Positions 53,535-64,000 of a stretch of DNA of 64,000 nucleotides are shown here, piece by piece. This DNA comes from Nanobdellati archaeon (GTDB lineage Archaea > EX4484-52 > WAPT01), in assembly GCA_015520605.1 (NCBI GenBank), contig WAPT01000001.1, positions 14,721 to 78,720 on the forward strand, written 5' to 3'. The notes under the pieces are model-generated. The model saw only the letters and a list, made by a program, of their open reading frames with translations, was not told where the DNA came from and did no database searches. The number at the start of each line of letters is the position of its first letter. The first letter of the stretch is position 1. Both the position numbers and the translations under genes were made by a program.

Positions 53535-54083
53535 TCATTTGTTGGATGCGTTTTTTATTGTTTCTTCAGTTGAATTCCCAATTATCTCATTTAAAACACA
53601 CATAGTTGGTTTTGGGTTAACTATACTACACAGGTAGTTTTCAATAACGGTAATGTTGGATGCGTTTTTTATTGTTTCTAAGGGAGTATAAAGATTTAGG
53701 ACTATGTTGGAGACGTTGCCCCCATAGGTGGAAAGATATAGGATGGGGTAGAATATCCTAATAAGCTGCACGGACTGATTATATATGGACATGCATTCTT
53801 CGCTGCAATTCTTTGGCACGATGACTTCAAGCACAGCTTTGCCATTCGAAAGAATGTAATTGATCTCCTCAGCTGAAAGTGGTCTGTTTATCTCTAAGTT
53901 TGATGGAAGTTTTTGTTTTTTTGAGTGTGCAAACATACCACCGCTATAAGCCGCGGCGAAAACCGAAAATGTCAGCATGAATGCAATGAGTAGGGAAAAA
54001 TACAAATCCTTCCTTTCGTTCTTATCCACCTCCCTCCTCCCTCTCTTCCTTTTTGTGGGTCTTGGTTTGGCCATAATGCTCAA
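53535..54083 (-). CDS. Membrane-anchored hypothetical protein
   Basis: Basic N-terminus, single TM, Asn-rich extracellular part with Cys pairs. Confidence 0.7.
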   Translation of the reverse strand: MSIMAKPRPTKRKRGRREVDKNERKDLYFSLLIAFMLTFSVFAAAYSGGMFAHSKKQKLPSNLEINRPLSAEEINYILSNGKAVLEVIVPKNCSEECMSIYNQSVQLIRIFYPILYLSTYGGNVSNIVLNLYTPLETIKNASNITVIENYLCSIVNPKPTMCVLNEIIGNSTEETIKNASNK

Positions 54084-54925
54084 CCCTTCAACAGTTGAGA
54101 GATCGCCAACACCCGTTTTCTATAATTTTTTATTGCGGACTCTTTAAGGCCTGCTCTCTTCAAGGTATCATCGTCAGCCTTCATAAAGTCAACAACGTTC
54201 CATATCCCGAGAGGAATAAGCGCTCTCCTATCTCTCAAAGGCATGCTGATTACTGTGAGTGGATATGCTTTCATCTCATTTACCCAGTCCGCAAAACTAT
54301 GTCCTTCGGGAAATCTCCAACTCAGAAGTTTGATGCCTCTGCACTTCGCGTATCTAATAGCGTGATCCGAAAATTTTGTGTTTGTCGTCACCCAGGCTTC
54401 AGATGGATTTATGGCGTTTTTCTTCCCTAGATCCCATCCTTCTCTCAGGTCTATTAATCTAGCATGTTGTCGCATCACCACATCAAGCCCCGTAAATGTT
54501 CTCTCCCTGTAGTGATGCTTGCACTCCACAATGATGATTTTATCATTTTTTTCGGCCAGAACATCTATTTCGTGTTCCACACACTTTCCCTCAGGTTTTG
54601 GTTCCGGGCTTCTCTTAACCCTGTAGCCGCGCAACCTGAAAAGAGAAGCCACATAACATTCAAATTCGTGAATATCGGGGTTAAGAGAAGCAATCGCATC
54701 CTTTAGCGTGTAAATCCTCGCAAGATGAGGGTCGTGTTTCTTGAGTTCTTCCTTGACCATCCTCAAAATTTCCTTTGTAGTTATCCCGTCATAAGCTCTC
54801 CTTTCGATCCCTCTTGCTATCTCTTCCGCCAGGGATTCTGGAGCCCCTGCTTTTATGGCGGTAGAGATTATTTTGTCCTCTCGGAACTCCTCGCGTTCAC
54901 CGTTCATTTTAACTACGTAAACCAT
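54080..54925 (-). CDS. ATP-cone plus Mrr-like PD-(D/E)xK restriction endonuclease domain protein
   Basis: VVKMNGEREEF ATP cone; FECYVASLF...EIDVLAEK...VECKHH; TNTKFS. Confidence 0.85.
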   Translation of the reverse strand: MVYVVKMNGEREEFREDKIISTAIKAGAPESLAEEIARGIERRAYDGITTKEILRMVKEELKKHDPHLARIYTLKDAIASLNPDIHEFECYVASLFRLRGYRVKRSPEPKPEGKCVEHEIDVLAEKNDKIIIVECKHHYRERTFTGLDVVMRQHARLIDLREGWDLGKKNAINPSEAWVTTNTKFSDHAIRYAKCRGIKLLSWRFPEGHSFADWVNEMKAYPLTVISMPLRDRRALIPLGIWNVVDFMKADDDTLKRAGLKESAIKNYRKRVLAISQLLKG

Positions 54926-54964
54926 AAAAATTTCTCGGGGAAGGAAAAGATATATATATTTGGT

Positions 54965-55036
54965 AGCCCCGTGGTGTAGTGGTAAGCATGGCGGGCTTTG
55001 GACCCGCTGACCCAGGTTCGAATCCTGGCGGGGCTA
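54965..55036 (+). tRNA. tRNA-Gln(TTG), CCA not encoded
   Basis: Acceptor AGCCCCG/CGGGGCT (A1-U72, typical of archaeal tRNA-Gln), anticodon arm GCGGG-CTTTGGA-CCCGC. Confidence 0.95.
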
Positions 55037-55072
55037 TTATATTTAAATAATTTAAAAAGGTGAAATTTAGAT

Positions 55073-55204
55073 ATGGGTGATGAGGACGATAAAGACTCGC
55101 ATCAAAAGGGTCTTAAAAGGGACGATTATATTGAGATTGCGGTGGTTCTCTTCCTCACATTGGTTCTGCTTGTGATCGTGGCAGGATACTACAATCTGAC
55201 TTGA
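55073..55204 (+). CDS. 43-aa single-pass membrane microprotein
   Basis: Not in the ORF track. AGGTGA RBS; MGDEDDKDSHQKGLKRDDYIEIAVVLFLTLVLLVIVAGYYNLT. Confidence 0.6.
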   Translation: MGDEDDKDSHQKGLKRDDYIEIAVVLFLTLVLLVIVAGYYNLT

Positions 55205-55254
55205 GGCAACATAAAGCAGAAAGTATTTAATTTAGAGCTTGTATATAGACCACA

Positions 55255-55587
55255 ATGTTGTTTGGGTTTTTATTTATTTTGATAGTGGTGTTGTGGATCG
55301 TGGATGCTGTAGAGACACTTATCGTGGTGCGTAGATTGGGATGCGGGGCTGAACTAAACCCATTCGCGCGATTTTTGCTGAAACACAACAAGGAGGATTT
55401 CATTCTATTTAAGCTAATTGATCTTGTGGTGGTGCTTACAATACTTTACTTCCTGTGCATTGAATCCGAAGAAATGGCGATGAGTCTTCTTGTAAGTTTT
55501 TTTGCAGTTTATTTATTTGTGGTAGTACATAATTTTAAGGTCATAAAAACTTTAAAAAACAAAAAAGATTATACAAAATATAAATAA
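55255..55587 (+). CDS. Small membrane protein (DUF5658-like)
   Basis: D..ET...G.AELNP...FK...VVVHN pattern, 3 TM. Confidence 0.65.
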   Translation: MLFGFLFILIVVLWIVDAVETLIVVRRLGCGAELNPFARFLLKHNKEDFILFKLIDLVVVLTILYFLCIESEEMAMSLLVSFFAVYLFVVVHNFKVIKTLKNKKDYTKYK

Positions 55588-55685
55588 TAAAATATAATTA
55601 AAAAACATGAAAACATATAAAAATGTCCATACACCTAAATATGAAATAAACTGACAGAAAACCATCAGCAAATTGGTGGTGAAAA

Positions 55686-55976
55686 ATGGACGAAGTCTCT
55701 CTCACAAACATTTTACTTCATGAGAAGCCGGTAAAGATGCTACTTGGTATCAGGAACAATGGCGGAGCGTCATACACAACGAAGATAGCCAAGTATGCGG
55801 ATTGTACATACTCTCACACAATGAAAATAATCGATATTTTTGAAAACAAGGGGCTTGTGGAGTCTGAAAAGAAAGGAAGAACCCGCTACATAAAATTGAC
55901 TAAAGTCGGGGAAGAGATCGCGAATCTCCTTGATGAACTCATGAGACTTTTTAAGAAAGTCGATGGAATAAAATAG
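55686..55976 (+). CDS. Winged helix-turn-helix regulator
   Basis: DCTYSHT...GLVESEKKGR...LTKVG. Confidence 0.85.
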   Translation: MDEVSLTNILLHEKPVKMLLGIRNNGGASYTTKIAKYADCTYSHTMKIIDIFENKGLVESEKKGRTRYIKLTKVGEEIANLLDELMRLFKKVDGIK

Positions 55977-55987
55977 TTTAGTGTTTT

Positions 55988-56833
55988 TCAATCCATTTCA
56001 TCAAGAGGGCTTTTTATTTTCATAAGCTCTTTAGCAGATACCTTGGTGTAGATCTGAGTTGTGTTTAGATTGGCATGCCCGAGCAGTTCCTGAATCTTTC
56101 TTATATCGACGCCCGCCTCCAGAAGGTGTGTGGCAAAACTGTGTCTCAGAACGTGTGGGGTTACATTTTTTGTTATTCCCGCCACAGCTGAAAGGTTCGA
56201 TATGATTTTCTGTGCAGCTCTGGGTGTCATCGGTCTGTTTCTGTCTTTTCCGGTAAAAATGTAATCCTCTGAGCTTTTATTTTCCATGGTTATCAAAGTT
56301 TGGAGATCCTCCGCAACTCTTTTTGATATGATAAATATTCTATCCTTTTTTCCCTTACCACCTCTCACAACCCCAACAAAATTGTTAAAATCTATATCCT
56401 TGACTTTTAAGTTGAGACACTCACTTATTCTTAAGCCAGAGGAGTAAAGAAGTTCAACCAGCGCCTTATGTTTTATGTTCTCCGCAGCATCTATCAGCGC
56501 TCTCACTTCCTCTTTGGTGAGAACGGTGGGCAGCTTCTTTTCCTGTTTTGGTGGTTTGAATCTCACAACATCCTCCTTCTTCATAACTTCGGAGAAAAAG
56601 AAGCGCAATGCGGCCATTATGCATGCTATGGTTCTTGTGCTCAACCCCTCCTCGATCATTTTTTGAGATATGTAGTCCTTAACGTCTTCCTCCGTGATCT
56701 TTGCTGGATTCTTTCCAACTTTCTTCAAAAAGTTTTTTACGTGCATCAAGTAGCTTTTGATCGTATTTTCTGTGAAGCCACGTAACCTCAACTCGGATTC
56801 CATTCTTGCGAGATATTTTGATTGAGTTCGCAT
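55988..56833 (-). CDS. xerA: XerA-like site-specific tyrosine recombinase
   Basis: N-terminal SAM-like domain; SGLRISE, GKGKKDR, HVLRHSFATHLLE, LLGHA..TTQIY (R-K-H-R-H-Y). Confidence 0.88.
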   Translation of the reverse strand: MRTQSKYLARMESELRLRGFTENTIKSYLMHVKNFLKKVGKNPAKITEEDVKDYISQKMIEEGLSTRTIACIMAALRFFFSEVMKKEDVVRFKPPKQEKKLPTVLTKEEVRALIDAAENIKHKALVELLYSSGLRISECLNLKVKDIDFNNFVGVVRGGKGKKDRIFIISKRVAEDLQTLITMENKSSEDYIFTGKDRNRPMTPRAAQKIISNLSAVAGITKNVTPHVLRHSFATHLLEAGVDIRKIQELLGHANLNTTQIYTKVSAKELMKIKSPLDEMD

Positions 56834-56835
56834 AA
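56825..56835 (-). promoter_or_regulatory. dif-arm half-site overlapping the xerA start codon
   Basis: Minus-strand TTATGCGAACT, identical to 63782-63792. Confidence 0.6.
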
Positions 56836-56925
56836 ACTATCGTATTGTTTTTTAACAAAATAAAAATGTTCATCAAACATGTTCGAGTAAGGGAAATCTT
56901 TAAATAGGGCTTCGGGTCAAAACAT

Positions 56926-57195
56926 GTGTTTATGAAGCTACCTCCAATAGAAGAGTTGGATTACTTCACGAGAAGGACGCTGGTAAACGACAATGGAGAA
57001 AAAACAGGAATGGTTATAATCTATCGTAGAAAAGGTGAGGAAAAATTCCACTATTTTCTACTTTGTCCTTACTGTGGTAAGGAACAAAAAGGGGAAGCTG
57101 TCTTCAAGAGAAGGCCATACAGAATAGAGTGTAAGGAGTGTGGTAAGAAAATTATTGTCGAACGATTGTACAAAAAGAACAAAAAGAAAAAGTGA
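56926..57195 (+). CDS. Zn-ribbon protein
   Basis: CPYCG...CKECG; divergent from xerA. Confidence 0.7.
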   Translation: MFMKLPPIEELDYFTRRTLVNDNGEKTGMVIIYRRKGEEKFHYFLLCPYCGKEQKGEAVFKRRPYRIECKECGKKIIVERLYKKNKKKK

Positions 57196-57538
57196 TTGAA
57201 GGTTAAAATATTAACGTATGGGGGGATGGGGAAGTCTGCTGCCTATGTTTTACACTCCAACAGTACATACAGGAAAATCAAGGACACCTTTTTTCATGGT
57301 GGCATTCCTTATATAGATTGCTGCGAACATGATAGTTTACATAAAGGCTGGGGAACACGATTAATAAGTTCGTGATGAAATCTTTCATAACCTGCTTCAC
57401 GACTTTTCTTCTGCTTCGGTATGTGATGTTCAAACTTGCTCACGCTCTTGCGGTGGTGGGATCTGGCACAAGAAATGAAAAATTTTAAAGGTTTGGCATA
57501 TTGTTTTATTATATCAGGAAGGAAAGGGCTTCTGTGGT

Positions 57539-57642
57539 GCCCGGGTAGCTCAGTTGGTAGAGCGCGAGTCTTGTAGCGTGAATCTCGTAGCCACGTGCTG
57601 GAGAACTCGTGGTCGTGGGTTCGAGTCCCACCCCGGGCTCCA
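57539..57642 (+). tRNA. tRNA-Thr(TGT) with a 28-nt intron at position 37/38 (57576-57603), CCA encoded
   Basis: Acceptor GCCCGGG/CCCGGGC-T-CCA; CGAGT-CTTGTA[intron]A-ACTCG; T-arm GTGGG-TTCGAGT-CCCAC. Confidence 0.9.
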
Positions 57643-57845
57643 CTTATTTTTCAAAAAATAAAGTCATTTTAAAAACAACAAAATTATTGCATGTTCTGTT
57701 CTCTTTTTTAAAAATTTTCAGAATCTCGTGTAAAACTTCTAACGAATCTCGTTAAAGTCTCAGCACCATTGTTTTCTACAGAATTGATTTATAAATTTAA
57801 CCAAAATCAATATAATATATTAAAGATGATTAAAGTACTCGTTAT

Positions 57846-58217
57846 ATGGTTGAAAACATGATAAGTAATTCGATACTCGGCGGCGTGACTTTGGTTGCTA
57901 TCGCCATTTCGGTCGCACTTATTTATATTTCTCTTGAAGCATACAGAACTTTCAAACTTAAAATATTCAAACAAGCGTTTGCTGTGTTTGTGTTTGCTTC
58001 CTATATTCTGCTGGTTGGAAGCATGATAACCTATTTTGGAGTCGAGGTCTGGTCCGAATACGGGACTTTCAAGGTGTTTATGGTACTTTTTATTATATTT
58101 GGAATCCTTTTTACTACGGGAATAATAAAAATGATAGAAGCTGCACAGATGCTTGGAATAGGAAAAATGCCATCCCGTTCTGAATTGAAAAAATTAAAAA
58201 AGAAAAAATCTAATTGA
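57846..58217 (+). CDS. Multi-pass membrane protein coupled to the KaiC-like ATPase
   Basis: Three hydrophobic segments and a basic tail. Confidence 0.7.
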   Translation: MVENMISNSILGGVTLVAIAISVALIYISLEAYRTFKLKIFKQAFAVFVFASYILLVGSMITYFGVEVWSEYGTFKVFMVLFIIFGILFTTGIIKMIEAAQMLGIGKMPSRSELKKLKKKKSN

Positions 58218-58231
58218 TATGTGTGGTCGAT

Positions 58232-58918
58232 ATGAGCAAGGTTCCCATTGAAAGGGTTCCCTCTGGGATTCCTGGATTGGATGAATTGGTGGAGGGTGGT
58301 TTTCCCAAAAGCAGTGCGATCCTAGTGGCTGGAGGTACAGGTACTGGTAAAACTACTTTTCTGAGTCAGTTCATATGGGAAGGTCTTAAGAGGGGGGAAA
58401 ACTGTCTTTTCGTAACACTTGAAGAAACTCCTGAAGAGATAAAAGGTGATGCTGCTGTTTTTGGGTGGGACTTCGAAACCTACGAGCAAAACGGACAGCT
58501 TCGCATAGAGTACTTTGATCCATTCGAGCTCGGGGATCTGGCGAACAGACTTGCAGACATGATAAAAATGAATAATTATGCGAGGGTGGCGATAGACTCC
58601 ACAGCACTTTTCGGTCTTTACGTTAATGATCTCTACAAAATAAGAAAAATCCTGTATAAACTCATAGAAAGCGTTAAATCCACCGGTGCGACCATTCTTC
58701 TCTCAACCGAAATTCCCGAAAACTCCAACCAACTCAGTAGATTTGGTGTGGAGGAATTCGTTTGCGATGGTGTCGTAGTTCTTTATTACCTTGGGATAGG
58801 GGAGGGTGTGTTCAGGAACATAGAAGTAAGAAAAATGAGAAGAACAAACCACAAAAACGGTACATTCCCCATGGAAATAACCGATGACGGCATTATTGTT
58901 AGATCCACATCCTTGTAG
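58232..58918 (+). CDS. Single-domain KaiC/RAD55-like ATPase
   Basis: SGIPGLDEL..GG, GGTGTGKT, TLEE, AIDS, VRKMR.T.H. Confidence 0.92.
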   Translation: MSKVPIERVPSGIPGLDELVEGGFPKSSAILVAGGTGTGKTTFLSQFIWEGLKRGENCLFVTLEETPEEIKGDAAVFGWDFETYEQNGQLRIEYFDPFELGDLANRLADMIKMNNYARVAIDSTALFGLYVNDLYKIRKILYKLIESVKSTGATILLSTEIPENSNQLSRFGVEEFVCDGVVVLYYLGIGEGVFRNIEVRKMRRTNHKNGTFPMEITDDGIIVRSTSL

Positions 58919-58992
58919 TGCATTCGCATATTCTGAAATTTATTTAAACGTTCCTTACCAGAGCTCCATCATTATCGGCGAGGTGATAAAAG

Positions 58993-60180
58993 ATGGTAAA
59001 AACACTGCTTACCAAGGATGTTATGAACAAAAACTTCGTGATAATGGAGGAAAACGATCCGATTTCAAAAGCGATAGATATTTTCGATGAGAGGGAGCCC
59101 GATGTAATTGTTGTTGTGGATTCAAATGGAAATTATGTTGGAATTCTGTCCGAAAGGTGGATCTACAGGTCAAGGCTTGATCCCACCAAAACCAAAGTAA
59201 AGACACTTGCGAGACATGTTCCCAAAGCCTATAAGGATACTCTTCTGGTGGAGATCGCCAGAAAAATGGTTGAGAATTATGTTCAGGCTGTGCCCGTTTT
59301 CGATAAGGATCAAGATGTGGTTATTGGTATAGTAAGTGATATTGATCTTCTTGTGAAGGTTGTGGAGAAAGAGTTCGGAAATGAGAAAGCCATAGATTAT
59401 GCAACCACACACCTAATAACACTTTTGCCTACAGACAGCATAGGAAAAGCTCTGGCCATGTTCAGGGATAACAATATTTCCCGAGCTCCGGTTATAGACG
59501 AGGGTAAGGTTGTGGGTATAGTCACCATGCATGACATCGTCACAAGGTTCCTTATTCCCAGAGAGAGGGCCAGGAGGGGTGAATTGAAAGGAGAGAAGGT
59601 TCATCCGCTTTCTGCTCCCGTCAGTAAGATAATGAGCTCGCCGGTCATTACGGTAACTCCTAATGCCACTCTAAGAGATATTGTGGAGCTCCTGAAACAG
59701 CACGATATTTCGGGGGTTGTGATCACGGATGAGAAAGGCAAGGCCATCGGAATAATCACCAAGAGGGACTTGCTGGAAGCTCTGATAAAGTATGCAGAAG
59801 TGCCTGAGGAAGAGAATTACATCGTGCAGATGGCAGGAGACTATGATAAGGTCGATGCTTTCGAGATGGAACACATAAGGAAGGATATTGAAAGTCTGAT
59901 GGAACTTGTGAAAAAGATGTTCGATGAAGCAATGCTGACCGTGCACTTCAAGCAGCTGAAAGCAACAAGGCCTGATGCAAGAAGATTCCTGATAAGGTTG
60001 AGGTTGATAACACCAGGCAAGGTTTATGTTGCAAAATACGAGGGTTTTAACGCTATAGATGTGTTTGAAATCGTGAAGGACAAGCTCGAAAGAGAGATTG
60101 TATCCGATAAGGAAAAGGAGGTTGACTTAAGAAAGAAGGAGACTCACGAACACCTAGAGAAGTATGAGTTTTGGATGTGA
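58993..60180 (+). CDS. Four-CBS-domain protein with C-terminal HPF/RaiA-like domain
   Basis: Four CBS repeats (GILS, GIVS, GIVT, GIIT), then a beta-alpha-beta-beta-beta-alpha-patterned C-terminal domain. Confidence 0.8.
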   Translation: MVKTLLTKDVMNKNFVIMEENDPISKAIDIFDEREPDVIVVVDSNGNYVGILSERWIYRSRLDPTKTKVKTLARHVPKAYKDTLLVEIARKMVENYVQAVPVFDKDQDVVIGIVSDIDLLVKVVEKEFGNEKAIDYATTHLITLLPTDSIGKALAMFRDNNISRAPVIDEGKVVGIVTMHDIVTRFLIPRERARRGELKGEKVHPLSAPVSKIMSSPVITVTPNATLRDIVELLKQHDISGVVITDEKGKAIGIITKRDLLEALIKYAEVPEEENYIVQMAGDYDKVDAFEMEHIRKDIESLMELVKKMFDEAMLTVHFKQLKATRPDARRFLIRLRLITPGKVYVAKYEGFNAIDVFEIVKDKLEREIVSDKEKEVDLRKKETHEHLEKYEFWM

Positions 60181-60195
60181 AATTATAATAGGGGG

Positions 60196-60456
60196 GTGAA
60201 CCTAATGGATATGAGAAAGATCAGGCTTGTGGTCGACACAGTACTGATTGCTGTTTTTGTCATCCTTACTCTTAGTGGGTTTGTGCTCTACATAGCTCCA
60301 TCCGGGCCCGGAAGTAAGTACTGGAGCTTTCTGGGAATAAATAAGTATAAGTGGGGTATGTTACATACACAAATAGGATTCGTGTTCATCTTGTTAGTTT
60401 TAATCCACTTCTGGCTAAACAGGAAGCTGTTCATAGGATTGATAAAAATGAAGTGA
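60196..60456 (+). CDS. DUF4405-like small membrane protein with conserved His residues
   Basis: SGFVLY...FLGI...W..LH...IHFWLN. Confidence 0.75.
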   Translation: MNLMDMRKIRLVVDTVLIAVFVILTLSGFVLYIAPSGPGSKYWSFLGINKYKWGMLHTQIGFVFILLVLIHFWLNRKLFIGLIKMK

Positions 60457-60720
60457 GTTGCTAAATTATCGCGATTCAGTATGAGATGCAACACACCCTA
60501 CCTAACCTTTGACATCGACACTACAGGTCTTAAAACTATCACATACACCACATACAAATTTTTTGTATGACATACCACAATCCAGATGGAGAGATATAAA
60601 CAACATAAAGAATGGAAGTGTGCTGCTTTGTTGGATTATATGCGAGAGTGGTAAATTCTTCAACCAATGTAAAGATACTGCTCATTAAGTGCTCAAATTA
60701 AACCATCTGGAGGAATATTT

Positions 60721-60819
60721 TCAAGTTCCTTTAATTTTTTGTTTTATTTTTTGTTTGGTTTTTGGTTCCAAATTTTTCATGAACTTAACTGCCTTTTTGT
60801 GTAAAACCACTTCAAACAT
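60721..60819 (-). pseudogene. Truncated RelE/ParE-family toxin
   Basis: Manual translation MFEVVLHKKAVKFMKNLEPKTKQKIKQKIK then frameshift/stop; alternative frame continues ELENIP. Confidence 0.6.
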
Positions 60820-60835
60820 AAAATAAAAACTAGTT

Positions 60836-60863
60836 TCTGTTGTTAATAAATGTTAACGAAAAT
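60836..60863. other. Degenerate dif-like site (11-6-11)
   Basis: TCTGTTGTTAA-TAAATG-TTAACGAAAAT, TAA-N6-TTA core with partial symmetry. Confidence 0.35.
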
Positions 60864-60887
60864 GCAGGATTGTATATTGCTGCAAAA

Positions 60888-61067
60888 TTAAACTTCATCC
60901 AGTTTTACTGCTTTTTTATCTACTTCTCCTTTCTTTACTATCTCATCCGCTTCTTTCAAAAGAAGATATTCCTCATGTGTCAAAAACGCATCACTAATAA
61001 TTTCCACTAAAAAGTTTAGCCTTTTATCTATCTCATTCACTTTTCTCAAAAGTCCCCCATCAGACAT
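60888..61067 (-). CDS. 59-aa putative antitoxin
   Basis: Not in the ORF track. MSDGGLLRKVNEIDKRLNFLVEIISDAFLTHEEYLLLKEADEIVKKGEVDKKAVKLDEV, upstream of the RelE fragment. Confidence 0.6.
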   Translation of the reverse strand: MSDGGLLRKVNEIDKRLNFLVEIISDAFLTHEEYLLLKEADEIVKKGEVDKKAVKLDEV

Positions 61068-61197
61068 AGTTTCTATTTAGCATGTATCTAATATAAATTT
61101 ATTTCAGAGTCTCAAGCCCTAAATTACTTGTTATCTTTTTCTCTTTCGACAAGGTGATAAAGATGGTTTAAAAAGGTTTGAAGAGGAAGAAAAATTC

Positions 61198-61386
61198 ATG
61201 GCAAAGTTCATGATCCTTTGTGTTCCGCCGCATGCGATAGAATATGCGAACAGCAAAAATGAAGCAATAGAACGAGAAGATGTAACAGTAAGATGGATCG
61301 GCAACGCTGAAAGCAAAGAGGAAGCATGGCAGAAATTTGTGGAGCAGGATGCTGAATTTGTGGAATTTTCGGAAAATAGTGGTTAA
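61198..61386 (+). CDS. Small hypothetical protein
   Basis: 62-aa acidic ORF. Confidence 0.45.
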   Translation: MAKFMILCVPPHAIEYANSKNEAIEREDVTVRWIGNAESKEEAWQKFVEQDAEFVEFSENSG

Positions 61387-61416
61387 GAAACGAGTGTCAT
61401 GCTCCGAGGCGATATT

Positions 61417-61911
61417 ATGAGAACAACATTTGAAAAAGTAGTGGAAATAGTTTTCAGAGAAATAATACCGAAACTAGAAAATAACGACGGATTAGCTGTA
61501 TTTGCTAAGGAGAGAGCAAAATTTGAAGGTTGGCTCAAAGTAGAACTATGTGAGAGTTTATCAAAATACTTTCCATCAGTCACCCCAGAAAAAGATAGGA
61601 TTGACATCACATTTAATAATTGGGCAATAGAGCTTAAAACTATCAATACTAACTACCGATACAAAAACGTTAAGAACAAAATACGTCCAATTACTAAAAA
61701 TGTCAAAGGTATACTCGAAGATATTGAAAAATTGAAATCATCAACCTATACTAATAAGGCAATTTTATTCGTAGTTTTCCCTGTGACTCATAATAATGAA
61801 AATTGGCGAATGCATTTGCAAAGAATATCTAGATTATTGAAAGATCTAAAACACAGGGAATTCAAATTTAAAAACGATATTTCAGGAGTGATTTATTTTG
61901 GATTAATATGA
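61417..61911 (+). CDS. Putative PD-(D/E)xK nuclease
   Basis: FEGWLKVEL...RIDITF...AIELK. Confidence 0.6.
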   Translation: MRTTFEKVVEIVFREIIPKLENNDGLAVFAKERAKFEGWLKVELCESLSKYFPSVTPEKDRIDITFNNWAIELKTINTNYRYKNVKNKIRPITKNVKGILEDIEKLKSSTYTNKAILFVVFPVTHNNENWRMHLQRISRLLKDLKHREFKFKNDISGVIYFGLI

Positions 61912-61940
61912 TGACGCCGTTTCGTTCAACAGTGTGGTGC

Positions 61941-62079
61941 TTCACCTCTTATCCTCCATCACAAAATCACTAACAATAAGTATGTGATTTTCTACATTCG
62001 CCTAGATGCTTTGGCTACGGCTTACATTTCACATACCCGCAGAACATTATTGAGTTTGAGGTTTTGAGGATAGGATGAA
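61941..62079. repeat. Long imperfect inverted repeat, attC-like
   Basis: TATCCTC (61950)/GAGGATA (62066) and GTATGTGA (61980)/TCACATAC (62029); TAAC at 61971. Confidence 0.55.
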
Positions 62080-62093
62080 TAACGCTTCTTGTT

Positions 62094-62276
62094 TTATTCA
62101 AGTAATCTTTTAAGATGTTCTTTGTTCGCTTTTGTAAGTGGGATTATGACATTTAATTCCAAATTCCTATCTGTTTTTTCGATTGCTTCCTTTATGTTTT
62201 CTGTTTCAATAATTTCAGAGAACTTTATAACGTTTTCACTATCCCAAACGCAGTATAAAACACCATATTTCATCAT
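62094..62276 (-). CDS. Small hypothetical protein
   Basis: 60-aa ORF with a TTTATAA-like box upstream. Confidence 0.5.
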   Translation of the reverse strand: MMKYGVLYCVWDSENVIKFSEIIETENIKEAIEKTDRNLELNVIIPLTKANKEHLKRLLE

Positions 62277-62331
62277 GAATAGATCGAGAGAAGGTGATAT
62301 TTATAAGGATTTTTATTAACTTTTCTTAATT

Positions 62332-63300
62332 ATGAATAAACCAAACTATTTTCTAATATCAGTATCAAATAGGGAGAATCTAGAACTATGTAAGAAATTC
62401 GCTTTGGCGGGGCTTACAAATAGTATTAATGGCGCATGGGCATACGTGGAAATAAATGAGGGGGATTTCGTTTCATTTCTTTATGGTGCGCGAGCACACA
62501 ATCTCTATAGGGTCAAGGAAAAAGAAGCAATACGAAACGCTAAAGACCTTCCACCATGGAAACCAATAACATTCAAACCATCAAATAGAACATATTGGTT
62601 TCCTTTAGGTTGTATCTTGAACCAGTAAGGCAGTTTGAAGAGCCCCTCATAAGAAACGAGTTTGCTTATGTAGCTGAAAATTTGCTTTTACGTGGAGGAT
62701 ACAGGAAAACGCATTTTCAAGCGGATCAAACCACACTTCAATAATGTTTCTCAAGTAGGTAATGTCATTAAAAGGAGTGTAGATATTTTAGAAATGCCAA
62801 AATACGAAACCTTTGAACTTAAATTCTGTTTGAGGAAAGAAAATGAAAATCCACCCGAAGTATCTTCATTTAAGGAAGTCATTCTACAAGCGCTAATAAA
62901 GAGATACTTATCAGAAAACCCTAACTTGAAAAATCTCATAGAGATTTGTGAAATAGACGAATTGGATATAAACAACCTTGAAGTCTTAAGTGAAAAAGCG
63001 CTGCCAGAAGGACATGTAGATATATTGATCAAAGAAGCAATACCAATAGGAGTTTCAAGGAAAATTGTGATAGAAGTCAAACTTGGAAAGGCTTCAGAAA
63101 ATGATTTCAAACAACTAAAATATTATGTTTCTGAGTTGGGTAATGAGTGTTTGAGAGGAGTTTTAATTGCGCGGGATTTTGCAAAACGCGCGCTTGAAAA
63201 GTTTGGAAATGACATAACAACTCTGACATACAATCTTGATTGGAAGAAAGATATTATAAGTTTTGAAAAATTGTGCGAATCGTTGAAGCTTCTACAATAA
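62332..63300 (+). pseudogene. EVE/PUA-like domain plus NucS-like PD-(D/E)xK nuclease, double frameshift
   Basis: ORF1 ([15 protein letters not shown]...EGDFVSFLY) and ORF2 (EGHVDILI...IEVK...QLKYY...GVLIA) are bridged by an open shifted frame [43 protein letters not shown]. Confidence 0.7.
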
Positions 63301-63304
63301 ATTT

Positions 63305-63619
63305 TCAAAGTTTCGCAAATCTGGCAAGTAAGACAATCAATGGAATCACAAAATAAAAAATTAATTCAGATATCCCCAGCAATCCAGCTTTCGCCATAAT
63401 ATATACCCCAAACAACCATCCAATTAAATATCCGGTTCCCCAGTAAGGCGTCACATATACCAGAGAGACAAGACCAAGAAACTCGATTAGCTTTAAAGAA
63501 AGAATATAATCATGAATATTATAAGGCACTATTTTAATCTCTGAGAGGATCTGTATCAAAACACCAATTAAAAAGCCTGAAAAGATTTCTGAGATGGCTC
63601 TTTCAAAACCGTGCTCCAT
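63305..63619 (-). CDS. Small multi-pass membrane protein
   Basis: About 104 aa, four hydrophobic segments. Confidence 0.65.
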   Translation of the reverse strand: MEHGFERAISEIFSGFLIGVLIQILSEIKIVPYNIHDYILSLKLIEFLGLVSLVYVTPYWGTGYLIGWLFGVYIMAKAGLLGISELIFYFVIPLIVLLARFAKL

Positions 63620-63764
63620 TCTGGGCATATATTGTTATTTTTGGGAAAATTTTAATAATATTCTGTCAATTCTTCCCACTTTCATCTTATATTTTTGGGA
63701 AAATATTTTCCAGCTTATATTTCTCAAAATCTTCTTTTCTCTCCACTTTCCATCCGTCCAGTTT

Positions 63765-63792
63765 TGTTCGCATAACGAATATTATGCGAACT
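63765..63792. other. Palindromic dif-like Xer recombination site
   Basis: TGTTCGCATAA-CGAATA-TTATGCGAACT: 11-6-11 geometry, 10-bp perfect inverted arms, CGCATAA-N6-TTATG core as in bacterial dif. Confidence 0.75.
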
Positions 63793-64000
63793 TGTTTTGA
63801 GTGTTGCGTTTTTTGTTCTAATATATTGATCTTGTACAAGTGCTTTTTTATAGAAAATAGTTGGATCAAAAGAACGTGTAGAAAAAGTTCTCAGACATAT
63901 ACTCTAAAGAGTCATATGCCTCATGTTGGGTAAAAGATTAATGTGAGAGTTTTTCGGAACATTGTGGAAAATAAATGGGAAATTTGTTCTAATTATAAGC

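Follow-up and report, generated by a model that had tools for sequence, protein, structure and literature searches.

The 3' part of a 64,000-nucleotide stretch of DNA from a Nanobdellati archaeon (the whole stretch is called the window below) carries a gene for a XerA-type tyrosine recombinase, a dif-like palindrome about 7 kb away, a copy of one arm of this palindrome on the start codon of the recombinase gene and, between the two, a 3.3-kb AT-rich tract of short genes. A preliminary description, made from the letters of the window, had taken these features for a candidate gene-capture locus, integron-like or pdif-like, at which XerA may capture defence cassettes next to dif. The window is G000:C15:14721-78720, and its end coincides with the end of contig C15. 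Its own genome, G000, comprises 863,228 bases in 27 contigs with a GC content of 0.443 and a completeness of 90.7%, and the host is a small-genome, DPANN-like archaeon. The comparison set contained 42 genomes (G000 and 41 relatives; the scopes of order and phylum gave an identical set), and the same-genus genome G001 was used as the main synteny reference. Run data were Logan contigs of four runs (X1-X4), with X1 as the probable source run (a hydrothermal vent metagenome by run metadata), and parts of the stretch that were uncovered in X2-X4 were not counted as absence.

The recombinase gene was found to be intact, as had been described. Its product contained a Pfam Phage_integrase domain (1.4e-50) plus a SAM-like N-domain and passed the NCBIfam equivalog model recomb_XerA_Arch (267.7 bits, cut-off 220), and it stayed under the cut-offs of the NCBIfam integron-integrase, XerC, XerD and XerS models, with 225.3 vs 265 for the integron integrase model TIGR02249 and 91.3 bits vs 267 for XerS. 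The best solved relative was Pyrococcus abyssi XerA (PDB 4a8e, E 5.4e-56), to which the product aligned in a single contiguous block that retained the GLRISE, GGKGKKDR, HVLRHSFATH (RHSFATH) and LLGH...QIYTKV stretches. The alignment to Vibrio IntI4 (2a3v) split in two (query 184/199 vs chain 184/239), and residues 185-238 of IntI4, which form its inserted segment, had no counterpart in the xerA product. On these model scores and alignments, we assign the recombinase to archaeal XerA and not to the integron integrases. XerA relatives were present in 35 of the 41 related genomes, and the G001 orthologue was 73% identical. A search of genome contigs also gave a distant XerA locus of Candidatus Woesearchaeota archaeon (49% identity, the sole match there), and no dif-like site of at least 15/20 was found within 20.8 kb of it.

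The palindrome, GTTCGCATAA-CGAATA-TTATGCGAAC, spans 63766-63791, and with the outer bases added it becomes a 28-bp site of the 11+6+11 layout. It scored 21/22 against an idealised 11+6+11 palindrome, and the runner-up in the 863-kb genome reached 17/22; G000 had 31 sites of at least 15/22, vs 31, 33 and 29 in three shuffled genomes. As a single strand, the site folded at z = -4.1, which was equalled by 0 of 200 shuffles. Its arms were found once per genome in G001, G003, G008, G015 and G019 at 0-1 mismatch, each time with another spacer. When up to 2 mismatches were allowed, 6 of the 42 genomes matched (G000 included) and a reversed-word control gave 0, and the conservation of the arms spanned three families (f1, f2 and f7). 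Since the arms are conserved, the spacer is free and there is a single copy per genome, the palindrome is, as far as its sequence can tell, the dif site. The palindromic site noticed about 7 kb from xerA is real, unique in G000 and conserved in five relatives. Two weaker matches with 3 mismatches were set aside: the one in G010 lies inside a 139-aa open reading frame (ORF) and is probably due to chance, and the one on a second G015 contig is doubtful as dif.

The inner ATAA-N6-TTAT and the 11+6+11 layout of the site are also found in the dif oligonucleotide of P. abyssi (PMC2958812) and in the dif of Thermococcus kodakarensis (PMC11840125). An identical core was present in at least 119 metagenome stretches (GC 0.27-0.69) plus 19 viral contigs, and 30 of these 138 fetched loci encoded a tyrosine recombinase in the locus, often within 1 kb. 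This wide distribution in metagenome and viral loci means that the core is a common Xer-type core. The listed metagenome loci had no neighbourhood gene in common with G000 except recombinases, and the 19 viral contigs showed no kinship to the G000 lineage beyond distant recombinases. One 1407-bp metagenome contig (L038) carried a 76-bp terminal direct repeat, within which lay a Xer site of this type, and encoded a single 293-aa ORF that had no Pfam match. It is a small circle or else a single-gene module flanked by such sites. A 49.7-kb contig (L067), from a sister sample, opens with the same 144 nt as L038 at 96% identity.

A single contig carried both the recombinase gene and its site in three genomes, at distances of 6.9 kb in G000, 8.9 kb in G001 and 9.7 kb in G003; these are the genomes with xerA and dif both on long contigs. 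In family f5, a variant perfect palindrome with other arms and a 6-bp spacer was found about 60 bp upstream of xerA in three of four genomes; in the fourth, G021, no palindrome was found upstream of xerA. The f5 palindrome together with xerA is read from the sequence as a xerA/dif module, and some archaea are stated to have such a module in the review PMC5357621. The arm on the xerA start that had been pointed out in the window was also confirmed. It reads TTATGCGAAC on the xerA coding strand, and in G001 the identical 10-mer occupies the same position (-2 from the xerA ATG), though the flanks on both sides differ. Among 13 xerA loci, the half-site was complete in G000 and G001 (10/10) and was found at 9/10 in G008 (at -21) and G005 (at -40); two f5 loci had the full palindrome upstream, and no half-site was found at the xerA start in four f2 loci, two f8 loci and the Woesearchaeota record. 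The exact 10-mer had 10 copies in G000, 2 of them within dif, and copies at 9/10 or better numbered 49, that is 0.057 per kb. Because arm copies are so rare, the position at the xerA start is unlikely to be due to chance, though it was noticed post hoc. For the bacterial recombinase XerS, binding to its own gene has been offered as autoregulation, by way of speculation (PMC1914069). In G008, another partial arm, CTCGCATAA, lies 20 bases past dif (G008:C141:404-475).

Isolated arms were also found to be arranged around dif in G003. On its 126.6-kb contig C1 (dif at 82896-82921), the top strand carried 9 copies of the arm 9-mer to the left of dif and 0 to the right, and the complement of the 9-mer had 7 copies to the right and 0 to the left, so all 16 copies were polar; none of them was at a start codon. 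Among 2551 9-mers with at least 8 copies, the arm 9-mer tied for top polarity and was alone among the tied in perfect polarity, and the other top-polarity 9-mers were members of a second polar repeat. This second repeat, which contains GGTTAGCTGC, had 13 forward and 6 reverse copies left of dif and 0 forward and 9 reverse copies right of it. Genome-wide counts of the arm 9-mer vs its reversed control were 27/11 in G003, 34/5 in G010, 25/7 in G015, 28/9 in G019, 15/5 in G000 and 18/7 in G001; the excess was seen in f1 and f2 genomes that use these arms, and most other families were near parity. No clear polarity of the arm word was found on the dif contig of G000. The nearest known parallel is the XerD-binding XDS sites of the bacterial terminus (PMC11840125).

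The tract between xerA and dif was then compared with G001 (Table 1). GC was 0.31-0.36 over 60500-64000, up to the contig end, and G001 had a like dip (0.30-0.35) on both sides of its dif. GC, gene orientation and the DUF4405 membrane protein (Pfam 8.7e-17) bore out the earlier picture of an AT-richer tract of short, mixed-orientation genes with membrane proteins. The region 54080-60456 was collinear with G001, with 39-92% amino acid identity. In slot 1, G001 encoded Ham1, a HAD hydrolase, a membrane protein, DUF2283 and a DUF433/DUF5615 pair (1.3e-26 and 1.4e-21). The following 61137-61385 matched G001 at 81%, the 665-bp insertion began directly after the stop codon of the 62-aa ORF, 62051-63287 matched at 88%, and the slot 3 region 63288-63657 was swapped in G001 for 507 bp with an HNH gene (Pfam 5.5e-13). 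Aligned in this way, the islet differs from G001 by two segment replacements and one clean 665-bp insertion. Past dif in G001, the next conserved gene was 0.9 kb on and syntenic with the end of G000 contig C23; the ends of C15 and C23 had no exact overlap, and their gap was about 50 bp by the G001 ruler. Because synteny picks up again at a conserved gene about 0.9 kb beyond dif, there is no long array outside the window, where the preliminary description had supposed that it may continue. The 3.3-kb AT-rich tract is a fast-evolving accessory islet, with defence-type or selfish genes in various states of decay. In G001, another 8.4 kb without a syntenic counterpart (G001:C7:18936-27322) lay between the flanking genes of G000 contig C23; it was not AT-rich and contained one ORF with only distant matches elsewhere in G000. 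Because this segment is variable as well, variable regions are not limited to the vicinity of dif.

Table 1 Positions of xerA, dif, the islet and neighbouring features in the window, and of the f5 palindromes
Feature	Position	Strand	Remarks
Small winged-helix protein gene, convergent with xerA	55686-55976	+	Pfam HTH_45, 25.5 bits (equal to cut-off); 76% amino acid identity in G001, same position
xerA, predicted tyrosine recombinase, 281 aa	55988-56833	-	NCBIfam recomb_XerA_Arch; PDB 4a8e alignment
dif half-site (one arm, 10/10) overlapping xerA ATG	56826-56835		Identical 10-mer; -2 from ATG
Conserved block: zinc-ribbon protein, intron-containing tRNA, membrane protein, KaiC-like ATPase, CBS-domain protein, DUF4405 membrane protein	56926-60456	+	Collinear in G001, 39-92% amino acid identity
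Islet slot 1	60457-61136		0.68 kb, unrelated to 3.27 kb in G001 (blastn, tblastx)
32-aa ORF fragment in slot 1	60724-60819	-	No family match
59-aa ORF in slot 1	60888-61067	-	No family match; unnamed cluster only
62-aa ORF	61198-61386	+	76% amino acid identity in G001; no family match; unnamed cluster only
665-bp single-gene insertion	61386-62050	+	Absent from G001; only TTA common to both junctions
164-aa restriction-endonuclease-like gene	61417-61911	+	In the 665-bp insertion; homologue naming, motif
60-aa ORF	62094-62276	-	93% identical in G001; no family match
Pseudogene, reader + nuclease protein (EVE/PUA/YTH-like N-domain, NucS/EndoMS-like C-domain)	62332-63300	+	Two compensating frameshifts near 62598 and 62745
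Islet slot 3: 107-aa membrane protein gene	63305-63628	-	HNH endonuclease gene instead in G001
Conserved left flank of dif	63658-63764		Part of 63658-63826 block, 82% nucleotide identity to G001
Predicted dif: 11-bp arm, 6-bp spacer CGAATA, 11-bp arm	63765-63792		Unique in G000; arms kept in relatives
Right flank of dif to contig end	63793-64000		63942-63995 aligns to G001; contig C23 continues synteny
f5 palindrome	G006:C45:31062-31085; G012:C10:20270-20293; G017:C53:7141-7164		Only perfect copy per genome

The genes of the islet had been described as a toxin-antitoxin pair, two PD-(D/E)xK nucleases and small membrane proteins. The toxin-antitoxin pair fell away: the G000 islet ORFs gave 0 matches to toxin-antitoxin families (Pfam, PADLOC, NCBIfam), and a six-frame search of the tract for ParE_toxin (PF05016) gave nothing. 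A RelE-like identity of the 32-aa fragment, suggested by likeness to archaeal RelE N-termini and one tblastx match to G001, was rejected, as Pfam and PF05016 were unsupportive. The two nucleases held up in part, with a NucS_C-like fold in one that is a pseudogene, and a motif and naming for the other. This other protein (164 aa) had 689 homologues, and the best 120 of them (61-77% identity) came from Thermococcus, the bacterium Thermatribacter, Bathyarchaeia, Nitrososphaerales and Methanoperedens, for example Thermococcus aggregans at 74% and Thermatribacter velox at 71%. Some homologues carried the UniRef name 'Restriction endonuclease', and in the D...ExK pattern of the family D63 and K74 were invariant and E72 nearly so. 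Although its model was good (pLDDT 88.7), Foldseek gave 0 PDB matches at E <= 0.001, so the PD-(D/E)xK assignment stands on motif and naming. No member of the family was found in the viral-contig scan. Judged by these homologues, the gene encodes a small restriction-endonuclease-like protein that circulates across phyla and whose unit was probably inserted recently. The 665-bp unit behaves as a mobile selfish gene and has no recognisable ends.

The pseudogene contained internal stops, and its part 62598-62744 lay in another frame with 92% identity to G001, where the orthologue is intact (325 aa, model pLDDT 92.3). The NucS_C-like domain scored 23.9 bits in the G000 copy vs a cut-off of 24, and 25.6 bits in the intact G001 copy. 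The family had 1204 homologues, the best 120 of which (53-65% identity) were from archaea and Chloroflexota. Foldseek matched the G001 model to MJECL36 (2p5d, 1.5e-5), MspJI (4f0p, 5.8e-5), AspBHI (4oc8, 1.7e-4) and EndoMS (5gke, 4.6e-4). By its predicted structure the family would be like MspJI, AspBHI and EVE/YTH-nuclease fusions in having a PUA/EVE/YTH-like reader and a PD-(D/E)xK nuclease akin to NucS/EndoMS. The Foldseek matches to MspJI and AspBHI ran over the whole length, but their TM-scores were 0.15-0.21, which means a likeness at the domain level only. From the model, the 325-aa family looks like a modification-dependent (type IV) restriction enzyme; unlike such enzymes, the copy in the window is frameshifted twice. 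In G003 a homologue was found 24 kb from dif, so the family is not tied to dif.

Capture of genes through secondary sites was examined in the window and beyond. In 55000-64000 there were 6 full dif-like sites at 12/18 or better vs 4.2 +/- 1.9 in shuffles, and the whole window had 4 inner-core matches vs 1.8 +/- 1.3 expected, a number that 11 of 100 shuffles reached. The best candidate for the second TAA-N6-TTA site that had been claimed, 61229-61248, had 3 mismatches and was not conserved in G001. The attC-like hairpin fared no better, for the islet hairpins, including the one at the homology breakpoint (63274-63317), gave z = -1.1, -0.2 and -0.4, which is chance level. A scan of the whole of G000 gave no further dif-like sites above chance, and the whole G001 contig had one full dif site. 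We did not find any Xer-like site at the junctions of the three G001 differences, nor was any repeat family reported where the modules meet. The breakpoints of the islet against G001, X2 and X3, as seen in contigs only, were at least 110 bp from dif. G000 and G001 share about 110 bp of conserved sequence beside dif, so their differences begin away from the crossover point. The same-genus genome G002 had no DNA match to 57800-64000 and no dif match. With no repeated sites, no structured hairpins and no dif mimic, the defining features of integrons, of pdif modules and of integrative mobile elements exploiting Xer (IMEX) were not found here. XerA-driven capture via secondary dif-like or attC-like sites is not supported: the site is single, the junctions are bare, the hairpins are at chance level, the genes have mixed orientation and are partly decayed, and the IntI insert is missing. 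The preliminary description had named singleton sites and fixed gene content as evidence against itself; dif was single in the window and in G000, and the defence-type or selfish gene content beside it differed between relatives.

Further variation was seen in the runs. X1 reproduced the stretch, and one of its contigs extended 77 nt past the window end. In X2 (same study, another sample) contigs diverged left of 61164 and left of 63626, near the G001 breakpoints, with a variant sequence left of 61164 and a third slot-3 variant left of 63626. X3, which is another study with a relative of about 90% identity, covered 60680-61347 and 63686-64000.

We read the locus, with good probability, as an ordinary XerA/dif chromosome-dimer resolution system beside which lies a variable, partly decayed accessory islet. 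In such a system, both 11-bp arms of the single 28-bp dif would be bound by XerA monomers, which would cleave the DNA where the 6-bp spacer meets the arms; by the exchange of strands, a dimeric chromosome would be returned to monomers. XerA bound to the arm on the xerA start may limit its own synthesis. The islet would turn over by ordinary insertion, replacement and deletion, and not by XerA at secondary sites. Like the archaeal XerA/dif systems of P. abyssi, Thermoplasma acidophilum and T. kodakarensis, the locus has one XerA and one 28-bp site in a single copy per chromosome, and the flanks of dif are conserved, as has likewise been reported in Thermococcales (PMC2958812). The T. kodakarensis dif sits in a 1.9-kb intergenic region (PMC11840125). 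Only 10 of the 22 arm positions agree with the dif of P. abyssi and the outer sequence differs, and the arms here form a near-perfect palindrome (10/11). In Thermococcales dif is reported not to be next to xerA (PMC2958812), whereas xerA and dif are linked here at 7-10 kb. The DPANN-like small-genome host and the copy of one arm on the xerA start codon also differ from the known archaeal systems. The bacterial systems xerS/difSL and xerH/difH are alike in that a single recombinase is genetically linked to its own site, most clearly in f5 with dif about 60 bp upstream of xerA, and unlike in that the full site here is 6.9 kb off, only a half-site is at the gene and the recombinase is of the XerA type.

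A small-genome archaeal lineage is thereby given a dif site and a linkage of this site to xerA; we found no literature on a dif site or Xer in DPANN. The site also gives a landmark for contig ordering in fragmented assemblies, and a tempting claim of an archaeal integron-like system is removed as unsupported.

Several observations do not sit easily with an ordinary dimer resolution system. The completeness of G000 leaves room for a second site in the missing part. Near dif, cumulative GC skew and 4-mer skew have only local and not global maxima in G000, G001 and G003, the profiles being dominated by gene-orientation blocks. Arm copies at 9/10 or better in 55000-64000 numbered 3 besides dif vs about 0.5 expected. 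The content of slot 3, which begins about 110 bp from dif, is different in each of G000, G001 and run X2. In 6 of the 10 dif-bearing assemblies, dif was 111-554 bp from a contig end, where about 1.35 were expected (P about 3e-4; the threshold was set post hoc, the genome figures were rounded, and without the doubtful 'dif' of G010 the count is 6/9). These were G000, G008:C141, G015:C96, G019:C93, G012:C10 and G017:C53, often contigs of 1-4 kb, and such assembly breaks around dif suggest population heterogeneity there. Finally, one X3 contig joined 63705 back to 60712 (2994 bases) at a depth of 13.4, with 42 nt on the shorter side. This joint, which is not at dif, may be a circular or tandem form of nearly the whole tract, a reshuffling of modules or a mis-laying at the shared AATATTTTC. 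A perfect 14-nt palindrome (63698-63711) lies at the joint; as a candidate repeated site it was rejected, being unique in G000.

It is doubtful, though of consequence, that the few hundred bases around dif are a hot spot at which strains exchange defence-type and selfish genes, to which XerA may contribute by IMEX-like integration with rapid erosion of the secondary sites, or that isolated arms, namely a xerA operator and the polar copies of G003, are working XerA-binding sites. If true, a dif hot spot or working isolated arms would be a first for Archaea. To our knowledge, no partner or regulator of archaeal Xer recombination has been described, and for this reason the xerA half-site, the assembly breaks near dif and the polar copies of the arm would matter if they were borne out; all three deserve a second look.

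A closely related and likewise improbable explanation is that circular DNAs with a dif mimic were integrated at dif by XerA as IMEX-like elements, and that their hybrid sites were then eroded and the cargo fixed. It is favoured by the varying content beside dif in G000, G001 and X2, the breaks near dif in six of ten assemblies, the X3 joint, the unrelated contig L038 with its terminal repeat and bacterial precedents (PMC5357621, PMC9765430). As in IMEX such as CTX-phi, TLC-phi, GGI and LME-1, accessory DNA lies beside dif and no own integrase was found in the islet. But IMEX are bounded by dif and a dif mimic, and a second dif-like site was found neither in the islet nor elsewhere in G000 nor along the full G001 contig; about 110 bp of the DNA that adjoins dif are conserved, the X3 joint is off the dif core with a short side of only 42 nt, and the neighbours of dif in G003 are housekeeping genes, apart from about 1.3 kb of unassigned ORFs to one side. 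No archaeal example was found in the literature on IMEX and XerA, including the available part of the review PMC5357621.

Much less probable still is that the palindrome serves as an operator, as a terminator or as another element's attachment site, with the true dif in the unassembled 9% of the genome. The incompleteness of the genome and the skew maxima, which are local, leave some room for this, but the arms are conserved around a free spacer across f1, f2 and f7 with one copy per genome, the geometry is the Xer-type 11+6+11, the sister family f5 has an equivalent palindrome abutting xerA, and all 16 copies of the arm 9-mer on the G003 dif contig fit a change of strand exactly at the site.

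An integron-like or pdif-like array, in which cassettes bounded by repeated sites are moved by the neighbouring recombinase, has next to no chance of being correct: there is a Xer/IntI-superfamily tyrosine recombinase at a distance of 7 kb and the AT-rich tract does hold small accessory genes, but the window and G000 have one site only, the hairpins fold no better than shuffles and are no structured attC, no junction repeat family was reported, the genes have mixed orientation, the recombinase is below the TIGR02249 cut-off and leaves the IntI-specific insert uncovered, and the locus is chromosomal and syntenic in G001. The pdif modules of Acinetobacter plasmids are bounded by pairs of dif-like sites, and no such pairs were found in the window or in G000.

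Outside the islet, the tRNA of the conserved block (57539-57639, plus strand) contained an intron and was missed by ARAGORN, and it was recovered by Rfam with 62.1 bits as one of two tRNAs, the only Rfam matches in 54000-64000.

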